Assembly (NCBI GenBank): GCA_919902995.1
Contig: CAKKSD010000050.1
Span: 14,499-78,498 of the forward strand
Origin: Thermodesulfovibrionia bacterium
GTDB lineage: Bacteria > Nitrospirota > Thermodesulfovibrionia > JACRGW01
Direction: 5' to 3'
DNA: 64,000 nucleotides
A program made the position numbers and the translations under genes. Each line of letters begins with the position of its first letter. Positions within the stretch are counted from its first letter, which is position 1. The notes beneath the pieces were generated by a model. The model did not search any database. It was not told the origin of the DNA and saw nothing but the letters and a program-made list of their open reading frames with translations. Of this stretch, positions 6,132 to 40,961 are shown in pieces.

Positions 6132-7230
6132 ATGTTAGACGAAGAATCGAGAGAGATAGAAGAACTCGAAACAAGGCTCAATACCCTCAGGGGGTATCTT
6201 TGAAATAGAAAAGAAAGAAAGCAGAATAAAGGAGATAGAGAAGATGATGGAAGCCCAGGATTTCTGGGAGAATGTTCCTTCTGCCCACGCCCTTCTGAAA
6301 GAGAAGTCCACACTTGAAGTGTCAATCAATAATTTCTATTACCTTCAGGGAAGGCTTGAAGACCTTGAGATAATGATCGAGCTTTCAGAGGAAGAAGAAG
6401 ATACATTTATATCAGAAATAGAAAAGGGTCTTAAAGAATTAAACAGTGAATTCCAGAAGATCGAAATAGAAACAATGTTAAGCGGTGAGAAGGACAGTCA
6501 TAATGCCATCGTCTCGATCCATCCCGGGGCTGGTGGTACAGAATCTCAGGACTGGGCACAGATGCTCATGCGCATGTACCTCAGGTGGGCAGACAGTCAT
6601 AATTTCAAGACTGAAATCATTGATATTCTTCCCGGAGAAGAGGCGGGTATTAAGAGTGTCACTATTATGGTCGCAGGTGAATATGCCTATGGTTACTTGA
6701 AGGCAGAGGCAGGGATCCATCGCCTCGTAAGGATTTCTCCTTTCGATGCAAGCAAACGCAGACATACATCGTTCGCTTCAGTATTTGTTCATCCTGAGAT
6801 AGAAGAAGACATAGAAATTGACATAAAGGATGATGATTTAAGGATCGAGACCTTCAGGGCAAGTGGTGCAGGCGGTCAGCATGTGAATAAGACATCTTCT
6901 GCAGTAAGGATAACCCATATTCCTACAGGGGTTGTTGTTCAGTGCCAGAACGAAAGGTCACAGCATAAGAACAAGGCGACCGCCATGAAGGTATTGCGGT
7001 CAAAACTCTATGAACTCAAGGAGGAAGAGCAGGCTAAGAAGATGGAAGAGATTTTAAGCGAGAAAAAGGAGATCGCCTGGGGAAGCCAGATACGCTCCTA
7101 TATCCTCCAGCCCTACCAGATGGTCAAAGACCACAGGACAAACCTCGAGGTCGGAAATGTAAACGCTGTCCTCGACGGAGACATAGACCAGTTCATTGAT
7201 GCCTATCTGTTACAGGAAGTCACCAAGTAA
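6132..7230 (+). CDS. prfB: Peptide chain release factor 2 with programmed +1 ribosomal frameshift (frame 0 6132-6200, shift at CTT TGA 6198-6203, +1 frame 6202-7230)
   Basis: The frame-0 ORF MLDEESREIEELETRLNTLRGYL ends at an in-frame TGA at 6201-6203. It is preceded by AGGGGG (6189-6194), a Shine-Dalgarno-like element, and then TAT CTT TGA. The +1 frame continues into the RF2 body with SPFDASKRRHTSFASVFVHPE and the GGQ motif RASGAGGQHVN. This is the canonical prfB autoregulatory site. Confidence 0.85.
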
Positions 7231-7246
7231 TCCCATCCCTCAACTT

Positions 7247-7756
7247 TTAACCCATCATTTCATCAATATCAAACCATTTCTGATCTGCCAAAATTATAGA
7301 GGTCTCAATTTGGCTTTCGGGAATTGACCAGTATTTCCTAAGCAATCTATCCTTTTCCTCTGTGGAAACCAAACGGAAATCATGTTTCTCATAGAATTTA
7401 ATAGCCCAAACAGCATCTGCCCAGGTACCAATTAATATCGGTCTATCTGTTTGCTTACAAAGATATGATAACAATTCCCCTCCTATGCCTTGATTTTGTC
7501 TCTTCCTTTGCACATAGGAGTGTCTGATTAGGGTTATATCTTGAACATCCTGGATTCCCATCACACCAATCAACTCCCTTCCTTCTTCGTATCCCCAGAA
7601 TACAACACCACTTTTTATCTCATGATGAAGTTCTACTTCAGACATATAAGGTTCTTTCCAGCAGTCTGCAGGGATTATACCTTTATATACCTTTGAAGCA
7701 TCATTTATTACTGAAAGGATAACATTGAACTCGCTTTTATTGCATAGACGTATCAT
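7247..7756 (-). CDS. GNAT family N-acetyltransferase
   Basis: 169 aa with an acetyl-CoA-binding motif RKRQNQGIGGELL typical of GNAT folds. Confidence 0.7.
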   Translation of the reverse strand: MIRLCNKSEFNVILSVINDASKVYKGIIPADCWKEPYMSEVELHHEIKSGVVFWGYEEGRELIGVMGIQDVQDITLIRHSYVQRKRQNQGIGGELLSYLCKQTDRPILIGTWADAVWAIKFYEKHDFRLVSTEEKDRLLRKYWSIPESQIETSIILADQKWFDIDEMMG

Positions 7757-7792
7757 AATTCTTATCCTGACTAAGAGTGGATGGTATAACTT

Positions 7793-8347
7793 TCAAGCTA
7801 AATGTTCAATCAATATTTTTATTCCAATACCGATTAATATCATACCTCCAACCACCTCTATTTTATTCTCAAAGAAATGTCCGAATCTATCTCCTACATA
7901 AACTCCTATGAATGATAGTAAAAATGTTATGACTCCGATTATTATTGCAGGATTTATAATCGAAATATCTAAGATCGAAAGGGTTAACCCTACTGCCAAT
8001 GCATCAATACTTGTTGCAATAGAAAGTATCAATATTACATAGATATTCAGTGGATCTAATTTCTTATCTGGATTCATCCTGGTCGATTCAAAAATCATTT
8101 TAAAACCGATCATACTTAGCAGTCCGAAGGCAATCCAGTGGTCAATGCCTGAAATAATATCTCTTAACCCTATGCCTGCCAACCACCCCACCACTGGCAT
8201 AATTGCCTGAAATAATCCGAAGAATGCTGCGAGCCTGAGGGCATGCTGGATTCTGAGATATTTAATTGTAAATCCACTTGCGACAGATACCGCAAAGGCG
8301 TCCATAGCCAGTCCTAAGGCTACAAATAGAATCGTAATTATATCCAT
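7793..8347 (-). CDS. mntP: Manganese efflux pump MntP (DUF204 family)
   Basis: 184 aa with six TM segments. The N-terminus reads LGLAMDAFAVSVASG, and duplicated DA motifs are characteristic of MntP. Confidence 0.8.
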   Translation of the reverse strand: MDIITILFVALGLAMDAFAVSVASGFTIKYLRIQHALRLAAFFGLFQAIMPVVGWLAGIGLRDIISGIDHWIAFGLLSMIGFKMIFESTRMNPDKKLDPLNIYVILILSIATSIDALAVGLTLSILDISIINPAIIIGVITFLLSFIGVYVGDRFGHFFENKIEVVGGMILIGIGIKILIEHLA

Positions 8348-8441
8348 TTATTATTTCGATTTAAACTTTATATCATTTAAAAACATTTTACAATAGTATC
8401 AGCATGTTAAAAGAGAATTGATAAGCTGTTTAATTTAGTCC

Positions 8442-8470
8442 TTGACATTCTTTGTAACATATGTTACAAT
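8442..8470 (+). promoter_or_regulatory. Near-consensus sigma70-type promoter for the ChrB-like gene (TTGACA-17-TACAAT)
   Basis: TTGACA at 8442-8447, a 17-nt spacer, then TACAAT at 8465-8470. Confidence 0.45.
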
Positions 8471-8488
8471 TATATCATATGTTACATA
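8452..8488. promoter_or_regulatory. Perfect 18-bp palindrome TTGTAACATATGTTACAA plus adjacent half-site copy (candidate operator overlapping spacer/-10)
   Basis: Positions 8452-8469 are self-complementary. Positions 8470-8488 (tTATATCATATGTTACAtaa) repeat the right half, CATATGTTACA. The core resembles the GAAC-N4-GTTC class of boxes but with TAAC arms. Confidence 0.4.
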
Positions 8489-8494
8489 ACAAAT

Positions 8495-8532
8495 CCCGCA
8501 CCTTCCAACGGGGTATTCTGTGAAGGTGCGGG
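8495..8532 (+). promoter_or_regulatory. Leader stem-loop (11-bp perfect stem CCCGCACCTTC/GAAGGTGCGGG) sequestering the first candidate start codon (GTG 8520) of the ChrB-like gene
   Basis: Inverted repeat at 8495-8505 and 8522-8532 with a 16-nt loop. It lies between the predicted TSS and the ATG at 8541. Confidence 0.35.
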
Positions 8533-8540
8533 ATAAACTC

Positions 8541-9506
8541 ATGGGCTGGCTACTGATATTTTACACGGTTCCCTCAAGGCCTGTAAGTAACAGGATGAGA
8601 ATATGGCGGAGGCTCTCAAAGATAGGTGCAGTTCAGCTCAAGGGTGCTGTTTACATACTCCCATACAACGAGGGAAACTATGAGTTCTGCCAGTGGGTTG
8701 TATCAGAGGTCTCATCAATGGGAGGTGAAGGGACATTCGTTAAGATAAAGACGATCGAGACAATGAAAGAGGCTGAGATAATCAATCTATTCAATTCTCA
8801 GAGGGAAATGGATTATCACAATATTTCAAAGGGGCTTGAAGATCTTGGTAGAAAAATCGAAAGTATAAGAAAGGGAGGCCGAACAAAAGACGCCAGGATA
8901 TTTCATGAGGAACACGGCAGATATGAAAAAGAGTTTAAAGAAATACGGAAGATAGACTTCTTCTCATCAAAGGCCGGAAGTACTTTAGAAAAGAGGCTTA
9001 AAGAACTGTACGGAAAAATCAGGGGCATATCGGGGATAGCCCCAAAGGAAAAGGGGATTGCCATAGTGCTAAAAAATATCAGGGACTATAGGAACAGGAT
9101 ATGGGTCACCCGAAAAAGGCCTTTTGTGGACAGGATGGCATCTGCCTGGCTGATAAAGAGATTCATAGATAAGAATGCCCAGATCAAGTTTATTGATGAA
9201 AGGGACATGAAGGGTTTGGACAAGGATTTAGTCACCTTTGATATACAGGAAGGAGAATTTACCCATGCGGCTGATATGTGCACCTTTGAAGTACTTCTAA
9301 AATCGTTCAATATTAAGGACAGGACATTAAAAAAGATCGCTGAGATTGTCCATGAGATTGATATAAGGGATGACAGATATAAGAACCCTGAAACCATCGG
9401 GATAGAGGACATATTAACAGGGATAAGGAAGGTTACTATCGATGACCAAGAGGCCCTTGAAAAAGGGATGTCTTTATTTGAGATGCTCTACGCATCAAAA
9501 ACTTAA
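8541..9506 (+). CDS. ChrB-like protein (ChrB_N plus Chrome_Resist C-terminal domain), putative oxyanion/metal-sensing regulator
   Basis: The N-terminal motif W..LY..P..PS..R.R.WR.L...GAV.L...V..LP and the C-terminal motif WVTRKRPFVDRMASAWLIKRFID both match the ChrB family. An alternative GTG start lies at 8520. Confidence 0.6.
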   Translation: MGWLLIFYTVPSRPVSNRMRIWRRLSKIGAVQLKGAVYILPYNEGNYEFCQWVVSEVSSMGGEGTFVKIKTIETMKEAEIINLFNSQREMDYHNISKGLEDLGRKIESIRKGGRTKDARIFHEEHGRYEKEFKEIRKIDFFSSKAGSTLEKRLKELYGKIRGISGIAPKEKGIAIVLKNIRDYRNRIWVTRKRPFVDRMASAWLIKRFIDKNAQIKFIDERDMKGLDKDLVTFDIQEGEFTHAADMCTFEVLLKSFNIKDRTLKKIAEIVHEIDIRDDRYKNPETIGIEDILTGIRKVTIDDQEALEKGMSLFEMLYASKT

Positions 9507-9524
9507 AAAAAGGAGGAAACGAAT

Positions 9525-9809
9525 ATGCCGCCAATTAATGACCATTTAAAGGTAAGTATGGAAAGGACAGGAAAGGATTATAGGGAGGTTCATGAATGGC
9601 TTGATGGAGACCCTGAGAAGAAGGCTGAAAGACATGACATTACAAAGATTCATGAGTATGGAAAGACAATAGAAGAAAAATACGGGAAGGAGGCACTTCA
9701 GGAATATATACAGCACATTCATGACGATGTGAAGGCAAAGTTTAATCACATACAGCATGACTTAGAAAAGGCAGTTACAGATGCGCTGGTATATTTTGGG
9801 GTGAAGTAG
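9525..9809 (+). CDS. Hypothetical small His-rich protein
   Basis: 94 aa with AAGGAGG 6 nt upstream of the ATG. It has many His/Asp/Glu pairs (HEWLDG, HDDV, HIQHD), suggesting metal binding, and sits 18 nt after the ChrB-like gene, so it is likely co-transcribed. Confidence 0.5.
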   Translation: MPPINDHLKVSMERTGKDYREVHEWLDGDPEKKAERHDITKIHEYGKTIEEKYGKEALQEYIQHIHDDVKAKFNHIQHDLEKAVTDALVYFGVK

Positions 9810-9826
9810 CGTAAATTTGTTTAAGT

Positions 9827-9977
9827 GTCATTCCTGCGGAAGCAGGAATCCAGAATAATGTCATTCCGCACTTGATGCGGAATCCAGTTCCTTAATAAGT
9901 AATAGATTCTCTATTATACGGAGACTTCACCTGTAAGCAAAGGAAGGCCACTGGATTCCCACTTTCGTGGGAATGAC
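9827..9977. repeat. Hairpin-repeat cluster (type cluster): three units GTCATTCC-stem-loop-GGAATCCAG, two forward and one inverted
   Basis: Unit 9827-9853 is GTCATTCCTGCGGAAGCAGGAATCCAG. Unit 9860-9887 is GTCATTCCGCACTTGATGCGGAATCCAG. Unit 9951-9977 is CTGGATTCCCACTTTCGTGGGAATGAC. Confidence 0.7.
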
Positions 9978-10003
9978 AAAAACGAGCTCAATCGGAGGAA
10001 ATT

Positions 10004-10558
10004 ATGACTTATAATATTCAAGACTCAGACATTGACCTTCTCAGAAATGCAGGGGTCTCTGAGGACGACATAAAACACTGTGTAAATGTAGCAGAAAAGG
10101 CATTAGAAATTGCAGAACGAACTGGCGCAAATGTTGACCTGGAACTCATCGGTAGGGGTGCCTTATTTCACGACCTCGGCAAAGCAATAACACATGAGAT
10201 TGAACATGGAAAGATCGGTGCCGAGATTGGGAATCATTTAGGACTTTCAAAGGAAATTACAGATATAATGGAGAAACACATCAGGGGAGGACTGACAGAA
10301 GAAGAGGCAAGAGAACTCGGATTGCCTGTAAAAGACTACACCCTCAGGACATTAGAAGAAAGGATTGTGATTTACTCTGACAGACTTGCAGATATAATCA
10401 TGGATGGCATTGTTGATATTAGAGGGGATGAACTGGAGGCTGAAAGGAGATTTGAGGAGATACTCATGGAATATCCGAAATACGGAAAGAATGAAAAAAC
10501 CCTGAATCGGTATATTGTATATCACAGGGAGATGCAGGGGTTGATGGGTAGCAAATAA
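10004..10558 (+). CDS. HD-domain (HDIG-type) metal-dependent phosphohydrolase
   Basis: 184 aa with the HD motif in LFHDLGK and downstream His/Asp residues. It is flanked on both sides by repeat clusters. Confidence 0.7.
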   Translation: MTYNIQDSDIDLLRNAGVSEDDIKHCVNVAEKALEIAERTGANVDLELIGRGALFHDLGKAITHEIEHGKIGAEIGNHLGLSKEITDIMEKHIRGGLTEEEARELGLPVKDYTLRTLEERIVIYSDRLADIIMDGIVDIRGDELEAERRFEEILMEYPKYGKNEKTLNRYIVYHREMQGLMGSK

Positions 10559-10573
10559 CGCTTAGCACAAAAT

Positions 10574-10676
10574 GTCATTGCGAGGAGTTCCGATTTATCG
10601 GAACGACGAAGCAATCTCAAAGCGTTACGAGTTACGACTTAAGAAAGAGATTGCTTCGCCTTCGGCTCGCAATGAC
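10574..10676. repeat. Nested inverted-repeat element (about 103 bp, MITE-like or structured RNA) with terminal IR GTCATTGCGAG/CTCGCAATGAC
   Basis: The outer IR is 10574-10584 against 10666-10676. The inner IR GAAGCAATCTC/GAGATTGCTTC is 10608-10618 against 10647-10657. Internal hairpins are GTTCCGATttatCGGAAC and GCCTTCGGC, with a tandem GTTACGA GTTACGA. Confidence 0.6.
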
Positions 10677-10694
10677 AGAAAGAAGCATTCATAG

Positions 10695-11993
10695 ATGAAA
10701 TTCAGTCCCTTCATACTACTCTGTACCACTGGCCTCTTCGCCATATTCAGTTCCACTATCTCAAAGAGTCCTGTATTGCCATTGTTTGCCTCTCATCTTG
10801 GAGCTGAGCCTTCTGGTGTTGGAATCATCGCCTCTACATCAGCATTCACAGGTATCATTGCAAGCATACCTGCGGGCATACTCTCTGATAGATTCGGAAG
10901 AAAAAGGATGCTGATCCTTTCTGCTGTAGTATTTGCGACTGCCCCCTTCCTTTATCTTTTAGTCACAGAGATTTGGCAACTCGTATTGATCAGGTTCTAT
11001 CACGGCCTTTCAACAGCCATATTCATTCCTGTCTCAATGGCCCTGGTATCAGATCTCTTTCATAAAGAGCGAGGAGAAAAAATAGGATGGTTTTCAACAT
11101 CGACACTCGTTGGAAGGTTTATCGCTCCTGTTGCAGGAGGCAGCATCATCGGCCTGCTAACTTTTAATCCAGATATGAGTTATAAGGTTGTTTATATTGT
11201 ATGCGGGATTGCAGGTGTAATCACCTTACTGCTAACACTGAGGATACCTGCTTTTGGAGATACTGCAACTACAAATCGTCATTCCCACGAAAGTGGGAAT
11301 CCAGACGCCGTCCCTGCGAAAGCAGGGAACTATAAAGATCTGGATTCCTGCTTCCGCAGGAACGACACAGAAATACTAAAACAGTCATCTCAGTCTTGGA
11401 AAGAGACTTTAAAGGCATTCAAGTCAGTAATATCAAATAGGGCTATTCTTATTACCGCTATTGTTGAGGCATCTATACTCTTTGCCTACGGGACATTTGA
11501 AACCTTTCTCCCCCTCTATGTAATAAATATAGGTCTTAGTGCATATGAAATCGGAATATTCCTCTCAGCACAGGTAATTACACTTGCAGTAACAAAACCG
11601 ATTATGGGAAGATTCTCTGACAGACATGGAAGAGGTCCGCAGATATTTGCGGGTGCCATAATCGGAGCAGTCTGCATCGGAAGCTTTTCTCTTTTCAGAT
11701 CTTTTATACCCCTTCTTGCCTTGAGTGTATTATTCGGTCTGAGCCTATCTGTTGTAACATCAGCCACATCTGCCTTTATCGCTGACCTCAGCAGACGTGA
11801 GACCCATGGTTCTGCAATGGGGATTTTGGGATCGATAATGGACATAGGCCATACAGCAGGCCCTCTTGTTTCTGGGATAGTGGCTACCTATTTAGGTTTC
11901 GGCAAGGCATTTATAGTGGCGTCGTTAATCCTTGTAGCAGTAGCCTGCATATTCTTAGCAAAAACCTCTCAACCCAAAAATTTCCTTATGTGA
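10695..11993 (+). CDS. MFS transporter
   Basis: 432 aa with 12 predicted TMs. An MFS loop 2-3 motif (SDRFGRKRM) is present, and a second copy (GRFSDRHGRG) follows TM8. Confidence 0.8.
   Translation: MKFSPFILLCTTGLFAIFSSTISKSPVLPLFASHLGAEPSGVGIIASTSAFTGIIASIPAGILSDRFGRKRMLILSAVVFATAPFLYLLVTEIWQLVLIRFYHGLSTAIFIPVSMALVSDLFHKERGEKIGWFSTSTLVGRFIAPVAGGSIIGLLTFNPDMSYKVVYIVCGIAGVITLLLTLRIPAFGDTATTNRHSHESGNPDAVPAKAGNYKDLDSCFRRNDTEILKQSSQSWKETLKAFKSVISNRAILITAIVEASILFAYGTFETFLPLYVINIGLSAYEIGIFLSAQVITLAVTKPIMGRFSDRHGRGPQIFAGAIIGAVCIGSFSLFRSFIPLLALSVLFGLSLSVVTSATSAFIADLSRRETHGSAMGILGSIMDIGHTAGPLVSGIVATYLGFGKAFIVASLILVAVACIFLAKTSQPKNFLM
11280..11368. repeat. Hairpin-repeat cluster embedded in frame inside the MFS transporter central loop
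   Basis: GTCATTCCCACGAAAGTGGGAATCCAG at 11280-11306, GTCCCTGCGAAAGCAGGGAAC at 11312-11332 and CTGGATTCCTGCTTCCGCAGGAACGAC at 11342-11368. Together they encode ...RHSHESGNPDAVPAKAGNYKDLDSCFRRND... without a stop. Confidence 0.65.
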
Positions 11994-13429
11994 GCTGCCT
12001 CTACAAGCATGCTCGGTATATTAGCATTGTCCTTTTCCTTAAAAGCCTTGATAATCCTTGACGTAATAGAATTATGTTCAAGGTTTACATTGTAATTACA
12101 CCAATCCAGTTTAAGGGATTTTTTAACCTCATCAGGCAGTATTGTGAGCACATCCTCATTGAAAAATGACATTGCTGTTTTCATATCGAACATAAAATTA
12201 ACATGCATGTCTTTCATGCAACTAATATCTTCAGAATTGAGCACATTCAAACCGAGAATTTCCGGGGGAAGTCCTATGGAATAACATGAGGCACAGAAGC
12301 TTATAACTCGAGGTAGCCTTACCTTTCCTACACTCCTTGCATATCCGAAAAGGCCAACATGAAGTTTACGCATTCTCCTTTTTGGCACAAAGCTGGCTAT
12401 ATGATTGATGATTGGGGCGAGATGCTCTATCATTCTTTTATATTCAACGGATACCTTATCTATAATCTCAATACATTTACCTTCATCCAGTTCCTGTCCT
12501 CTCTTCATAGGTGAGGTCTTTAACTTATTAATAGCAGCAATTACATCAGGAACAGGGTTATCATACTTAAATGCTGATTGCGCAGTGAATGTCTGGACAT
12601 CAGGATATTCTTCCAATACATTAGCAATAGTATAGGGAGAAAGATGTCCTCTGAAAGGTGCCGTACCAGCGCCAAGTATCGGATATATATTAACCCCTGT
12701 TTCTTCAGAAAGTCTTCTTAAACGTCGCAGTGCAATTTTGTTGCAAAGAATAGCGCTTACCATTCCATAGTTCATAGCAGGATCTGACCTTGCTAAAAAT
12801 ACCCTCTGGTGTTTTATATCTTTGTCTTTAAGATATTCTCCCATAATATTATGCGCCTCAAGCATATGCACCTTATCTTCAAAAAGTGGTATCACATTTA
12901 TTGATTCAGGTTTACACTCACCTATCCATTCAGATATGGTAATATCGCCTTGATAAAATGGTTGGTTTTGTTTTCCTACAACAAAGTCCTTGTAATAGTA
13001 GTAAACCCTGTTCAGACTTTGGTGGGACATCGTCATAGGAAGAATGACCTCAAAGATAGGTGGAACTTCCTTTCCATAAAAAAGTCTTGCGGCATCACAG
13101 GAACGGGGAATACTTTCAAGGGTCTCTATTAGAACCTTCGCTTCTTCTTTTTCTATATCAGGATTTGGAACCCTCACCGTAAGAAATACATCTTCTCCGA
13201 GTTTTGTATTCTTAAAATAATGTTCATATTTAGTTAGAAGCTTTCGTACCACAAAAGCATCGACCTCTTTACCTTCAGAGTCCCACATCTGTTCATCACA
13301 TCCAAGATGGGAAAAGGCATAATACGCTTCCTGAACCTCATCATCTCCTGACATGTCAGGACTTTCTGCAAAAAATGGTAAAAGGACATTGTCAGGGTGT
13401 TGGGTTGACATTACCCTCGGTATCTTCAT
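11969..13429 (-). CDS. ppcA: Archaeal-type phosphoenolpyruvate carboxylase (PpcA)
   Basis: 486 aa. The N-terminus MKIPRVMSTQHPDN is the hallmark of atPEPC, and the length and overall profile fit that family. Confidence 0.75.
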   Translation of the reverse strand: MKIPRVMSTQHPDNVLLPFFAESPDMSGDDEVQEAYYAFSHLGCDEQMWDSEGKEVDAFVVRKLLTKYEHYFKNTKLGEDVFLTVRVPNPDIEKEEAKVLIETLESIPRSCDAARLFYGKEVPPIFEVILPMTMSHQSLNRVYYYYKDFVVGKQNQPFYQGDITISEWIGECKPESINVIPLFEDKVHMLEAHNIMGEYLKDKDIKHQRVFLARSDPAMNYGMVSAILCNKIALRRLRRLSEETGVNIYPILGAGTAPFRGHLSPYTIANVLEEYPDVQTFTAQSAFKYDNPVPDVIAAINKLKTSPMKRGQELDEGKCIEIIDKVSVEYKRMIEHLAPIINHIASFVPKRRMRKLHVGLFGYARSVGKVRLPRVISFCASCYSIGLPPEILGLNVLNSEDISCMKDMHVNFMFDMKTAMSFFNEDVLTILPDEVKKSLKLDWCNYNVNLEHNSITSRIIKAFKEKDNANIPSMLVEAAHIRKFLG

Positions 13430-16731: not shown

Positions 16732-16824
16732 GTCATTCCCGTGAAACTTGTCCTCGACTGCGATCGGGGAACGGGAATCCAGAGACATACAAAATACTGG
16801 ATTCCGCATCAAGTGCGGAATGAC
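16732..16824. repeat. Hairpin-repeat cluster: a long unit (51 bp) plus an inverted unit identical to the reverse complement of unit 9860-9887
   Basis: GTCATTCCCGT...ACGGGAATCCAG spans 16732-16782. CTGGATTCCGCATCAAGTGCGGAATGAC spans 16797-16824 and is the exact reverse complement of 9860-9887. Confidence 0.7.
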
Positions 16825-36129: not shown

Positions 36130-36294
36130 GACAGGCGAGACGCCTGTCCTACTGATGCTAAAACAATCACCCATATTTGGGTAGGACGGCCGTCTCGGCT
36201 GTCTGTTTTTCTGTCATTCCCACGGAAGTGGGCATCCAGAGAATAAATATTTGCTGGAGCTTAATAACTGGATTCCTGCCTTCGCAGGAATGAC
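36130..36294. repeat. Composite hairpin/repeat cluster between atpE and gltX
   Basis: GACAGGCG-aga-CGCCTGTC at 36130-36148. GTCCTAC...GTAGGAC at 36146-36187. GACGGCCGtctCGGCTGTC followed by TGTTTTTCT. Family units GTCATTCCCACGGAAGTGGGCATCCAG at 36213-36239 and CTGGATTCCTGCCTTCGCAGGAATGAC at 36268-36294. Confidence 0.6.
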
Positions 36295-40199: not shown

Positions 40200-40961
40200 T
40201 TACAAAAAAGACTTGATCTTCTCGATACTCTTTTCCACAGCCTCTTTGCTTCGAACCTCTATGGTGAGGAGGGGCATATTCTGAAAGCCCTTTAGAAGTC
40301 TGAAGAAAAGGTCGAAATCCAGCTTCCCATCTCCAATAGCAAGATGTTCATCCTCAATCCCATTATTGTCATGAATATGAACTTCGATAAGGCGGTGGCC
40401 TAATCTATCAATCCATTCCTTGAGGGGTTTTTTTGAGAAAAGATGGAAGTGGCCTGTATCGAGACAGAATCCGAACCTGTCGGAGTCGATTTCCTTAATA
40501 AGATCTTCAATGGTTGCTGGATCTTCTTCAAAGACATTCTCTATGGCTATTGATGCTGTGGTTTTTCTGGCACTCTCGAGAACCTGGCTCCAGGTCTTTA
40601 AGCTATTCTCAAGCCACTGGTCTTCGTGTCCGTGAAATCGCCACATGTCATAACCGGGATGGAAAATAAGTACTTTTGGTTTGAAGACCTCTGCGATTTC
40701 TACTAAATGGAGGAATCTTTCGAGGGTAAGCCTCCTGACCTTTTCGTCCATACCTCCAGGGCTCATATCCATAAAAGGACCGTGGAGGGAGAGGTTGGGA
40801 TTCCAGTCAAGGGACCACTTGAGGTTATGGATATCTTTCCCGGAAATATTATCGAGGGCCAGGGAATCGAAATAGATCTCGAGATCTAACTTTCTTTCTC
40901 TCACATAATTGATATTTTCTAAGAGTTTTTTATAGGGAAGGTGTACATGTGCTCTGGGCAT
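40200..40961 (-). CDS. Sugar phosphate isomerase/epimerase (xylose isomerase-like TIM barrel)
   Basis: 253 aa with conserved metal-binding E/D/H pattern (IAIENVFEE ... CLDTGHF ... HIHDN). Confidence 0.7.
   Translation of the reverse strand: MPRAHVHLPYKKLLENINYVRERKLDLEIYFDSLALDNISGKDIHNLKWSLDWNPNLSLHGPFMDMSPGGMDEKVRRLTLERFLHLVEIAEVFKPKVLIFHPGYDMWRFHGHEDQWLENSLKTWSQVLESARKTTASIAIENVFEEDPATIEDLIKEIDSDRFGFCLDTGHFHLFSKKPLKEWIDRLGHRLIEVHIHDNNGIEDEHLAIGDGKLDFDLFFRLLKGFQNMPLLTIEVRSKEAVEKSIEKIKSFL

Follow-up and report, generated by a model that had tools for sequence, protein, structure and literature searches.

A ChrB locus of new form in a Thermodesulfovibrionia bacterium, with a conserved candidate operator and an uncharacterised output module

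ChrB regulators and the locus analyzed

To our knowledge, ChrB is the only chromate-sensing regulator that has been described. It is used in biosensors, and its DNA-binding mode, operator, and regulon are poorly defined; our literature search found no paper describing a consensus for the ChrB operator, a structure of ChrB, or any ChrB from Nitrospirota, and a profile search of PDB found no solved structure for any ChrB relative. In this work, we analyzed a chrB-like gene, its promoter, and the genes downstream in a 64-kb stretch of DNA from a Thermodesulfovibrionia bacterium (assembly GCA_919902995.1, contig CAKKSD010000050.1, positions 14,499 to 78,498 of the forward strand; hereafter the window, to which coordinates refer unless another locus is named). 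This locus is a known regulator system, ChrB, in a new form with an uncharacterised output module. Judging from sequence comparisons, chrB probably heads an autoregulated chrB-p94-HD-MFS operon (probability roughly 0.7), in which ChrB would repress one strong sigma-70-type promoter through two operator sites, the ChrB boxes O1 and O2. Here, p94 is an orphan protein of 94 amino acids (aa), HD is a phosphohydrolase, and MFS is a major facilitator superfamily transporter.

In Ochrobactrum tritici, ChrB binds its own promoter in electrophoretic mobility shift assays (EMSA), which required at least 1 μM of the protein, and the promoter is constitutive without chrB (PMC3817168). The protein is mainly dimeric; the R18A and R23A mutants are constitutive, and R180A, R187A, and H229A are non-inducible (PMC3817168). 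The published operator consists of an imperfect 12-bp repeat whose linker measures 9 bp; this inverted repeat overlaps the -10 hexamer and stops 4 nt short of the ATG, and the paper gives no transcription start (PMC3817168).

The window protein is a bona fide two-domain member of the ChrB family, as an initial annotation of this DNA had proposed, since it passes the Pfam gathering thresholds for both ChrB_C (PF09828; 151.4 bits vs. a cutoff of 25) and ChrB_N (PF20229; 37.8 vs. 23). In its AlphaFold2 (AF2) model (predicted local distance difference test score, pLDDT, of 84), a beta-alpha-beta-beta-alpha-beta domain (residues 3-69) is followed by long helices (77-164) and ChrB_C (187-318). Foldseek searches with this model gave matches for the N-terminal domain alone, to PaaX and Cas2 (E ~0.01-0.1), and no fold match for the C-terminal domain; a weak Pfam PaaX_M match also came from the N-terminal domain. 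The window residues R18, R23, R191, R198, and H242 align with R18, R23, R180, R187, and H229 of a Klebsiella plasmid ChrB, to which the functional O. tritici residues were mapped by identical numbering, the O. tritici sequence itself being outside the alignment. All five are invariant among the window protein and the seven canonical plasmid ChrBs that were aligned with it (28-35% identity), and R18, W22, and R23 are located on helix 1 of the Cas2-like domain in the AF2 model.

The ChrB box and its conservation

The chrB promoter, TTGACA-17-TACAAT, matches the consensus at 11 of 12 positions and has a TG just upstream of the -10 hexamer (Table 1). Together with a perfect 18-bp palindrome at 8452-8469 (TTGTAACATATGTTACAA), it had been pointed out in the initial annotation, and our reading of the sequence recovered both. 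The same annotation placed a second half-site copy at 8475-8485; the copy exists and lies 1 nt further on, at 8476-8486 (CATATGTTACA), where it forms the right-hand part of O2, which is offset from O1 by exactly 18 bp. Within the window alone, palindrome and promoter are weak evidence, because Markov simulations give an expectation of 0.45 perfect 18-bp palindromes per 64 kb and eight promoters in the window match the consensus at 11 or more of the 12 positions; their significance comes from comparative data. No further copy of the box was found in the window with up to three mismatches allowed. Two further perfect 16-bp palindromes are present, at 13346-13361 and 40873-40888.

A protein search with ChrB returned more than 5000 relatives, of which the close ones (55-80% identical) all belong to Nitrospirota/Thermodesulfovibrionia and some Desulfobacterota. 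We scanned 80 orthologous genomic loci (811 kb from 80 genomes) for TGTAAC-N4-GTTACA with at most one arm mismatch and found 73 boxes. Every one of them (73/73) precedes either chrB, at a distance of up to 462 nt, or p94, directly; shuffled sequence yields 0-2 boxes, with about one expected by chance. A fixed scaffold was found in 65 of the 80 loci, namely, cTTGACA, 5 nt, TGTAACAnnTGTTACA, and then TT, with O2 at +18 bp. Because TT follows the box, its 3' end forms a TACAtT -10 hexamer. The loci bearing this scaffold come from Nitrospirota, Desulfobacterota, and Geobacteraceae. With the sites aligned in register, the O1 arm positions are 81-100% conserved across loci, and the O2 consensus in the relatives is wTATCAnnnGTTACA. 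A box is made up of two near-palindromic TGTWACA heptamers spaced by 9 bp, so that the promoter has four heptamers in a 9-bp register. The genes around the box differ among loci, and the chrB-like gene is therefore its only constant partner. From this distribution, the palindrome appears to be a real and widely conserved operator (the "ChrB box") that is specific to ChrB-type regulator genes and their cargo.

In the window, mntP lies divergently upstream of chrB, and the initial annotation had considered a LexA/Cheo-type, metal, or SOS regulator shared by the two genes, with the proviso that a palindrome occurring at many unrelated genes would implicate a global regulator. The box was found only at chrB and p94 in the 811 kb, and we regard co-regulation of mntP and chrB from their shared intergenic region by a global regulator (LexA/Cheo-like SOS or Fur/Zur/MntR-type) as very improbable. 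The 6-N4-6 repeat is superficially like GAAC-N4-GTTC, the LexA Cheo-type box of SOS genes, and the palindrome does stand in a divergent intergenic region beside a metal efflux gene. However, T replaces the Cheo G in 98% of boxes, the window has no box elsewhere, and the box is 105 nt from the mntP start and placed on the chrB promoter. Moreover, none of the 80 orthologous loci contains mntP, and neither does L092, a syntenic locus (76% identical) with the gene order prfB-GNAT-chrB-p94-Usp-HD-MFS. The adjacency of mntP to chrB in the window appears incidental. The segment 8370-8393 bears a weak 75% resemblance to the operator, with four arm mismatches in an AT-rich spacer, and mntP co-regulation was rejected on this ground and for lack of synteny. 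No yybP-ykoY Mn riboswitch is present upstream of mntP, as had been stated: Rfam RF00080 was unmatched at E≤1 in 7000-11000, and the whole Rfam scan of this segment gave only two sub-threshold chance matches (9824-9875 and 10602-10661).

Canonical chrB loci carry related elements. We examined 14 such plasmid loci, most of which also have an annotated chrA next to chrB. In 13 of them, a TGTWnC-N4-GnWACA element (score at least 8/10) lies at most 160 nt upstream of chrB, compared with 17% of shuffles; these boxes are diverged, and the symmetric score was designed after some of them had been seen. The upstream boxes include those of Arthrobacter (TGTAACCGTGGTTACA), Ralstonia (TGTAGCGGTCTCTACA), C. 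metallidurans (TGTAGCGATCTCTACG), and Deinococcus (TGAAACATCTGTTACA), and one shared by three alphaproteobacteria (TGATACAnnTGTTGCA). Tandem boxes stand 19 bp apart in Klebsiella and 21 bp apart in Pseudomonas, and the published O. tritici sequence contains TGTAGTAACATCTAC, which fits the box pattern. We infer that ChrB itself is the cognate regulator because the box co-occurs with chrB and O. tritici ChrB binds its own promoter; the initial annotation had listed this as one possibility, and with box exclusivity, the canonical boxes, and the O. tritici precedent, it is the best-supported one.

Several observations weigh against this assignment or against the mechanism built on it. At the one-mismatch limit, 15 of the 80 loci have no box, some of these being contig ends or carrying two-mismatch boxes; the exclusivity covers the 811 kb of orthologous loci, and further boxes may stand at unlinked genes; and the divergence of the canonical boxes and the design of their score count here as well. 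No helix-turn-helix or other recognisable DNA-binding motif was found in the ChrB fold by AF2 and Foldseek. In EMSA with the O. tritici protein, ChrB stayed on the DNA when chromate was present, and mutation of the repeat did not abolish binding (PMC3817168), so simple dissociation may be wrong. The effector, too, may be something other than chromate, the hosts being anaerobic and Cr(VI) short-lived in such settings.

Some of these points would fit a box that is recognised by a different protein, either a dedicated regulator whose gene lies elsewhere or one of the small proteins of the locus, for example p94 or the AFAEAG peptide (a small protein of chrA-type loci, described below), with ChrB as only a sensor or accessory. 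The missing helix-turn-helix favors this alternative, as do the separate winged helix that the Cas2-like fold accompanies in PaaX and, in O. tritici, the micromolar EMSA concentrations and the retained binding to mutated repeats (PMC3817168). We nevertheless consider it improbable: p94 occurs in 32 and the AFAEAG open reading frame (ORF) in 14 of the 80 loci vs. boxes in 65, no regulator gene is syntenic, and box-like elements accompany chrB onto plasmids of Proteobacteria, Actinobacteria, and Deinococcus. In addition, purified O. tritici ChrB binds the promoter, and its R18 and R23 mutants are constitutive (PMC3817168). ChrB thus remains the regulator to which we assign the box.

Table 1. Features of the chrB locus in window coordinates.
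Feature	Position	Strand	Remarks
-35 hexamer TTGACA	8442-8447	+	sequence reading and promoter scan; TTGACA positions 72-90% conserved in relatives
ChrB box O1 TGTAACATATGTTACA	8453-8468	+	core of the 18-bp palindrome; occupies the promoter spacer and extends into the -10
-10 hexamer TACAAT	8465-8470	+	shares its first four bases with the 3' end of O1; consensus in relatives TACAtT
ChrB box O2 TATATCATATGTTACA	8471-8486	+	left arm degenerate, right arm conserved; 2 mismatches; covers the predicted transcription start and the putative ancestral start codon
Putative ancestral leaderless start, now a 14-codon upstream ORF (uORF), MLHNKSRTFQRGIL then stop	8479-8523	+	ATG 8479-8481 at the O2 centre; TGA 8521-8523 overlaps GTG 8520-8522
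44-nt insertion	8494-8537	+	boundaries ambiguous by a 3-nt AAA duplication (8491-8493 and 8535-8537); carries the 13-bp stem
chrB-like gene	8520-9506	+	start GTG 8520 or ATG 8541; N-terminal Cas2-like domain, three long helices, ChrB_C (Pfam, AF2)
p94	9525-9809	+	94 aa, all-helical, His/Asp-rich orphan; 18 nt after the chrB stop
HD/HDIG phosphohydrolase	10004-10558	+	TIGR00295-like, below cutoff
MFS transporter	10695-11993	+	last gene of the predicted operon; repeat-derived 38-aa insertion in the central loop

Start codon and inserted repeat of chrB

The three closest relatives (L092, L093, and L094; 76-82% identical) keep the promoter and both boxes and lack the leader hairpin seen in the window, and in all three the ATG at the O2 centre is the only in-frame chrB start codon. 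L094 reads ATG TTA CAT AAC AAA CTC AGG GGC TGG (MLHNKLRGW), and the window reads ATG TTA CAT AAC AAA, 44 nt, and then CTC ATG GGC TGG, such that MLHNK corresponds to the first five codons of L094 chrB. The insertion shifts the reading frame of ATG 8479, and for this reason ChrB should now start at GTG 8520 or at ATG 8541; a protein begun at the ATG opens with MGWLL, in agreement with the N-terminus of canonical ChrBs. Of the 80 loci, 21 have a box that contains an in-frame start codon, usually the sole candidate, and many orthologs have no leader at all. In loci with the fixed scaffold, box geometry puts the central ATG of O2 7-9 nt past the -10 (9 nt for ATG 8479 of the window), which would imply a leaderless or near-leaderless mRNA. 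The ancestral chrB mRNA was probably of this kind, with its start codon in the centre of O2.

The hairpin of the initial annotation is present and longer than the 11 bp given for its perfect stem, with 13 perfect pairs (8493-8505 with 8522-8534). GTG 8520-8522 is at the base of the 3' arm, and ATG 8541 is 7 nt past the stem; the leader RNA (8477-8560) folds at -30.1 kcal/mol (z = -4.4). The hairpin is terminator-like on the minus strand only; its plus strand has no U-tract, and it should therefore not terminate chrB transcription. The same insertion allele occurs in an independent metagenome contig (L095). When metagenome contigs were scanned with both 13-nt arms, we found six in which the arms are identical and the loop is similar (ATCCCGCACCTTCC-loop-GGAAGGTGCGGGAT), and BLAST found no match between these six and the window DNA or the operon proteins. 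No other convincing copy of the arm was found in the window. Because the same arms and loop recur in six contigs without similarity to the window or the operon, we take the hairpin to be a copy of a dispersed palindromic repeat that was inserted recently, and not a dedicated control element. Its unrelated contexts, its presence/absence polymorphism, and the flanking AAA duplication are likewise those of a dispersed repeat. The copies in L103-L108, a 42-nt element, sit beside T-runs, and the L103 copy lies directly after another terminator-like hairpin; this suggests that the element may prefer inserting at T-tracts or terminators.

The initial annotation had read the hairpin as a start-codon-sequestering leader, and a selected cis-regulatory element gating ChrB synthesis (a translational attenuator, an RNA thermometer, or a riboswitch-like structure) would agree with the high stability of the fold. 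It would also agree with the enclosed GTG, with the AAGGTG and GGGA motifs that resemble Shine-Dalgarno sequences for ATG 8541, and with the overlap of the uORF stop with GTG 8520. We regard this explanation as unlikely, given that the hairpin is absent from relatives as close as 76-82%, where a conserved leader structure is thus not seen, that the 42-nt element stands in unrelated contexts and usually beside T-runs, and that Rfam gave no match.

An alternative reading of the insertion is that it cripples chrB translation and leaves the operon constitutively derepressed, a natural regulatory knock-down. The ancestral start is frameshifted, and the replacement starts are in or just after a GC-rich 13-bp stem, as this reading would have it. 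Against it, the ORF is intact and keeps all family-invariant residues, MGWLL is a canonical N-terminus, the GTGA overlap permits translational coupling, and the allele recurs in L095. A knock-down is thus not a likely outcome, and we favor a chrB gene that has tolerated the repeat and is still expressed.

Downstream genes, proposed regulation, and known systems

The stretch from chrB to the MFS stop contains neither a promoter with a score of 11/12 nor a site that resembles a terminator. ORF and domain reading bore out p94, HD, and MFS as the downstream genes and MntP as the divergent neighbor, all four as initially annotated. p94 matched no family in Pfam or NCBIfam and had no significant match in sequence and fold searches of PDB. 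Its own family has 143 cluster representatives with invariant His and Asp residues, and the AF2 model is all-helical (pLDDT 93). A phmmer search with the HD protein gave no match. Among the 80 loci, p94 is syntenic in 32, and the HD hydrolase is found in 32 (54-81% identical), nearly always directly after p94. In five clusters p94 is fused N-terminally to an HD domain; therefore, the two most likely act together, with p94 as a predicted accessory partner of the HD hydrolase. The fusion proteins are P0242 (383 aa), P0241, P0249, P0265, P0296, and P0253, with an HD domain in five and an adenylate/guanylate cyclase domain in one. Weaker p94 relatives bear TPR or HEAT repeats.

Linkage to chrA, which is typical of the ChrB family, is missing here: as the initial annotation had stated for the locus, no chrA homolog was found, and this holds for the whole 64-kb window. 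Independence of the system from chrA is not supported. chrA is present in 31 of the 80 loci, often in the order small ORF-chrB-chrA-DUF2148-MFS, p94 and/or HD in 38, and both chrA and p94/HD in 12, and the missing chrA is a local variant. Where p94-HD-MFS is transcribed separately, it has a box promoter of its own (L011, L015, L030, L040, L055, L088, and the Thermodesulfovibrio locus L109). These patterns indicate that p94-HD-MFS is conserved cargo of the ChrB box, alternative or additional to chrA. In L109 (4900-5000), from a Thermodesulfovibrio metagenome-assembled genome, chrB is reduced to a short remnant (..RMTSAWLIKKFID..), and the TTGACA promoter and box (TATAACATATGTTACT) are kept 48 nt upstream of p94-HD-MFS; the neighbors are a heavy-metal P-type ATPase and thioredoxin/AhpC genes.

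Two further gene types accompany chrB at other loci. A conserved ORF of 70-100 aa lies between the ChrB box and chrB in L090 (7651-7923) and in about 14-19 other chrA-type loci (e.g., L026:5661 and L037:395). This is the AFAEAG ORF, counted in 14 of the 80 loci; it has repeated AFAEAG(D/E)(Y/F) motifs, a C-terminal HPDDCQYGDNDxC motif, and no Pfam family; it may encode a small metal- or oxyanion-binding protein. A second, stand-alone gene with only ChrB_C (31-35% identical) is in the same clusters (L063:8244-8648 and L070:6989-7387).

Other repeats are present in the window. Clusters of GTCATTCC...GGAATCC palindromic repeats lie at 9827-9977, 16732-16824, and 36213-36294, the first of which fills the 194-nt spacer between p94 and HD, and exact GTCATTCC octamers occur eight times vs. 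2.25 expected. Repeats of this type also make up the 38-aa in-frame insertion of the MFS transporter (...HSHESGNPDAVPAKAGNYKDLDSCFRRND...; 11278-11366), which is absent from the 69%-identical L088 ortholog. Between HD and MFS, a perfect 12-bp inverted repeat (CGAAGCAATCTC/GAGATTGCTTCG, 10607-10658) coincides with a sub-threshold Rfam match to Spy392987 (E = 0.073). The MFS gene and a convergent gene for an archaeal-type phosphoenolpyruvate carboxylase (PEPcase_2, 643 bits) share 25 nt at their 3' ends (11969-11993).

In the mechanism that we propose, ChrB dimers, likely two, would occupy O1 and O2 in the uninduced cell and block RNA polymerase, with O1 filling the spacer and overlapping the -10, and O2 covering the transcription start. 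DNA would be contacted through the Arg-rich N-terminal Cas2-like domain and not through a helix-turn-helix. A chromate-like tetrahedral oxyanion may bind the C-terminal domain and relieve repression; such a response is suggested because the effector residues are conserved and chrA co-occurs with the family. The induced cell would then make more ChrB together with a two-part HD phosphohydrolase (p94 and HD) and an MFS exporter, which may replace the ChrA chromate pump in the window lineage and accompany it in other genomes. The 44-nt palindromic repeat presumably landed after codon 5 of an ancestrally leaderless chrB, and ribosomes would now begin ChrB at GTG 8520 or ATG 8541, probably by reinitiating there after termination at the uORF stop, which would carry them past the stem. 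We offer only tentatively, and as rather doubtful in its entirety, the combined proposal that a one-component ChrB family without a helix-turn-helix reads a co-evolving box through its Cas2-like domain and that the output in anaerobic Nitrospirota and Desulfobacterota is p94, HD, and MFS and not mainly ChrA. If true, this would represent a new oxyanion or redox-stress detoxification pathway, made up of a two-part metallo-phosphohydrolase and an MFS exporter, with a trigger that is possibly not chromate.

The phylogenetically footprinted operator, in which two 16-bp boxes are set 18 bp apart on a constant promoter scaffold, can serve directly as a probe in EMSA, footprinting, and co-structure studies and enables regulon prediction in any genome. 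The analysis also draws attention to p94-HD-MFS, an unstudied output module that includes an orphan domain, and the locus illustrates how a mobile palindromic repeat may rewire the translation initiation of a leaderless regulator gene.

Compared with known systems, the best structural likeness is that of the N-terminal beta-alpha-beta-beta-alpha-beta domain of ChrB to PaaX, the phenylacetyl-CoA-responsive repressor (PDB 8a39), and to Cas2; unlike ChrB, PaaX contacts DNA through a separate N-terminal winged helix, which ChrB does not have. The hairpin element resembles dispersed palindromic repeats of the REP/MITE (repetitive extragenic palindrome/miniature inverted-repeat transposable element) type, which include Correia elements and Rickettsia palindromic elements. 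It shares with these a GC-rich palindrome of about 42 nt with conserved stem and loop, unrelated contexts, tolerated insertion in coding sequence, presence/absence among close relatives, and a short A/T duplication flanking the insert. Unlike them, it has no known associated transposase and is single-copy in the 64-kb window, and it is not related in sequence to the GTCATTCC...GGAATCC repeats of the other intergenic gaps. The lambda cI gene, as transcribed from PRM, is a leaderless autoregulated repressor gene. The window locus is similar in its start codon, predicted to be at or within ~2 nt of the transcription start, and in operators that overlap the regulator's own promoter, whereas the regulator fold is unrelated and the insertion would have uncoupled the leaderless start from the gene.

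The closest counterparts are ChrB of O. tritici TnOtChr and ChrB1 of C. metallidurans pMOL28, the chromate-responsive chrBACF regulator. The window protein has the same two Pfam domains and the five residues mapped there by mutagenesis; in both cases chrB is first in the operon, the operator repeat overlaps the -10 and nearly reaches the start codon, and tandem boxes stand about two helical turns apart. The window ChrB differs in its identity of only 28-35%, in its box arms (TGTAAC/GTTACA vs. TGTAGC/TCTACA), and in a tandem 16-bp box reading that departs from the published 12-bp repeat with its 9-bp linker. It differs as well in its cargo, p94-HD-MFS instead of chrA and superoxide dismutases, and in its host, which belongs to an anaerobic Nitrospirota lineage.

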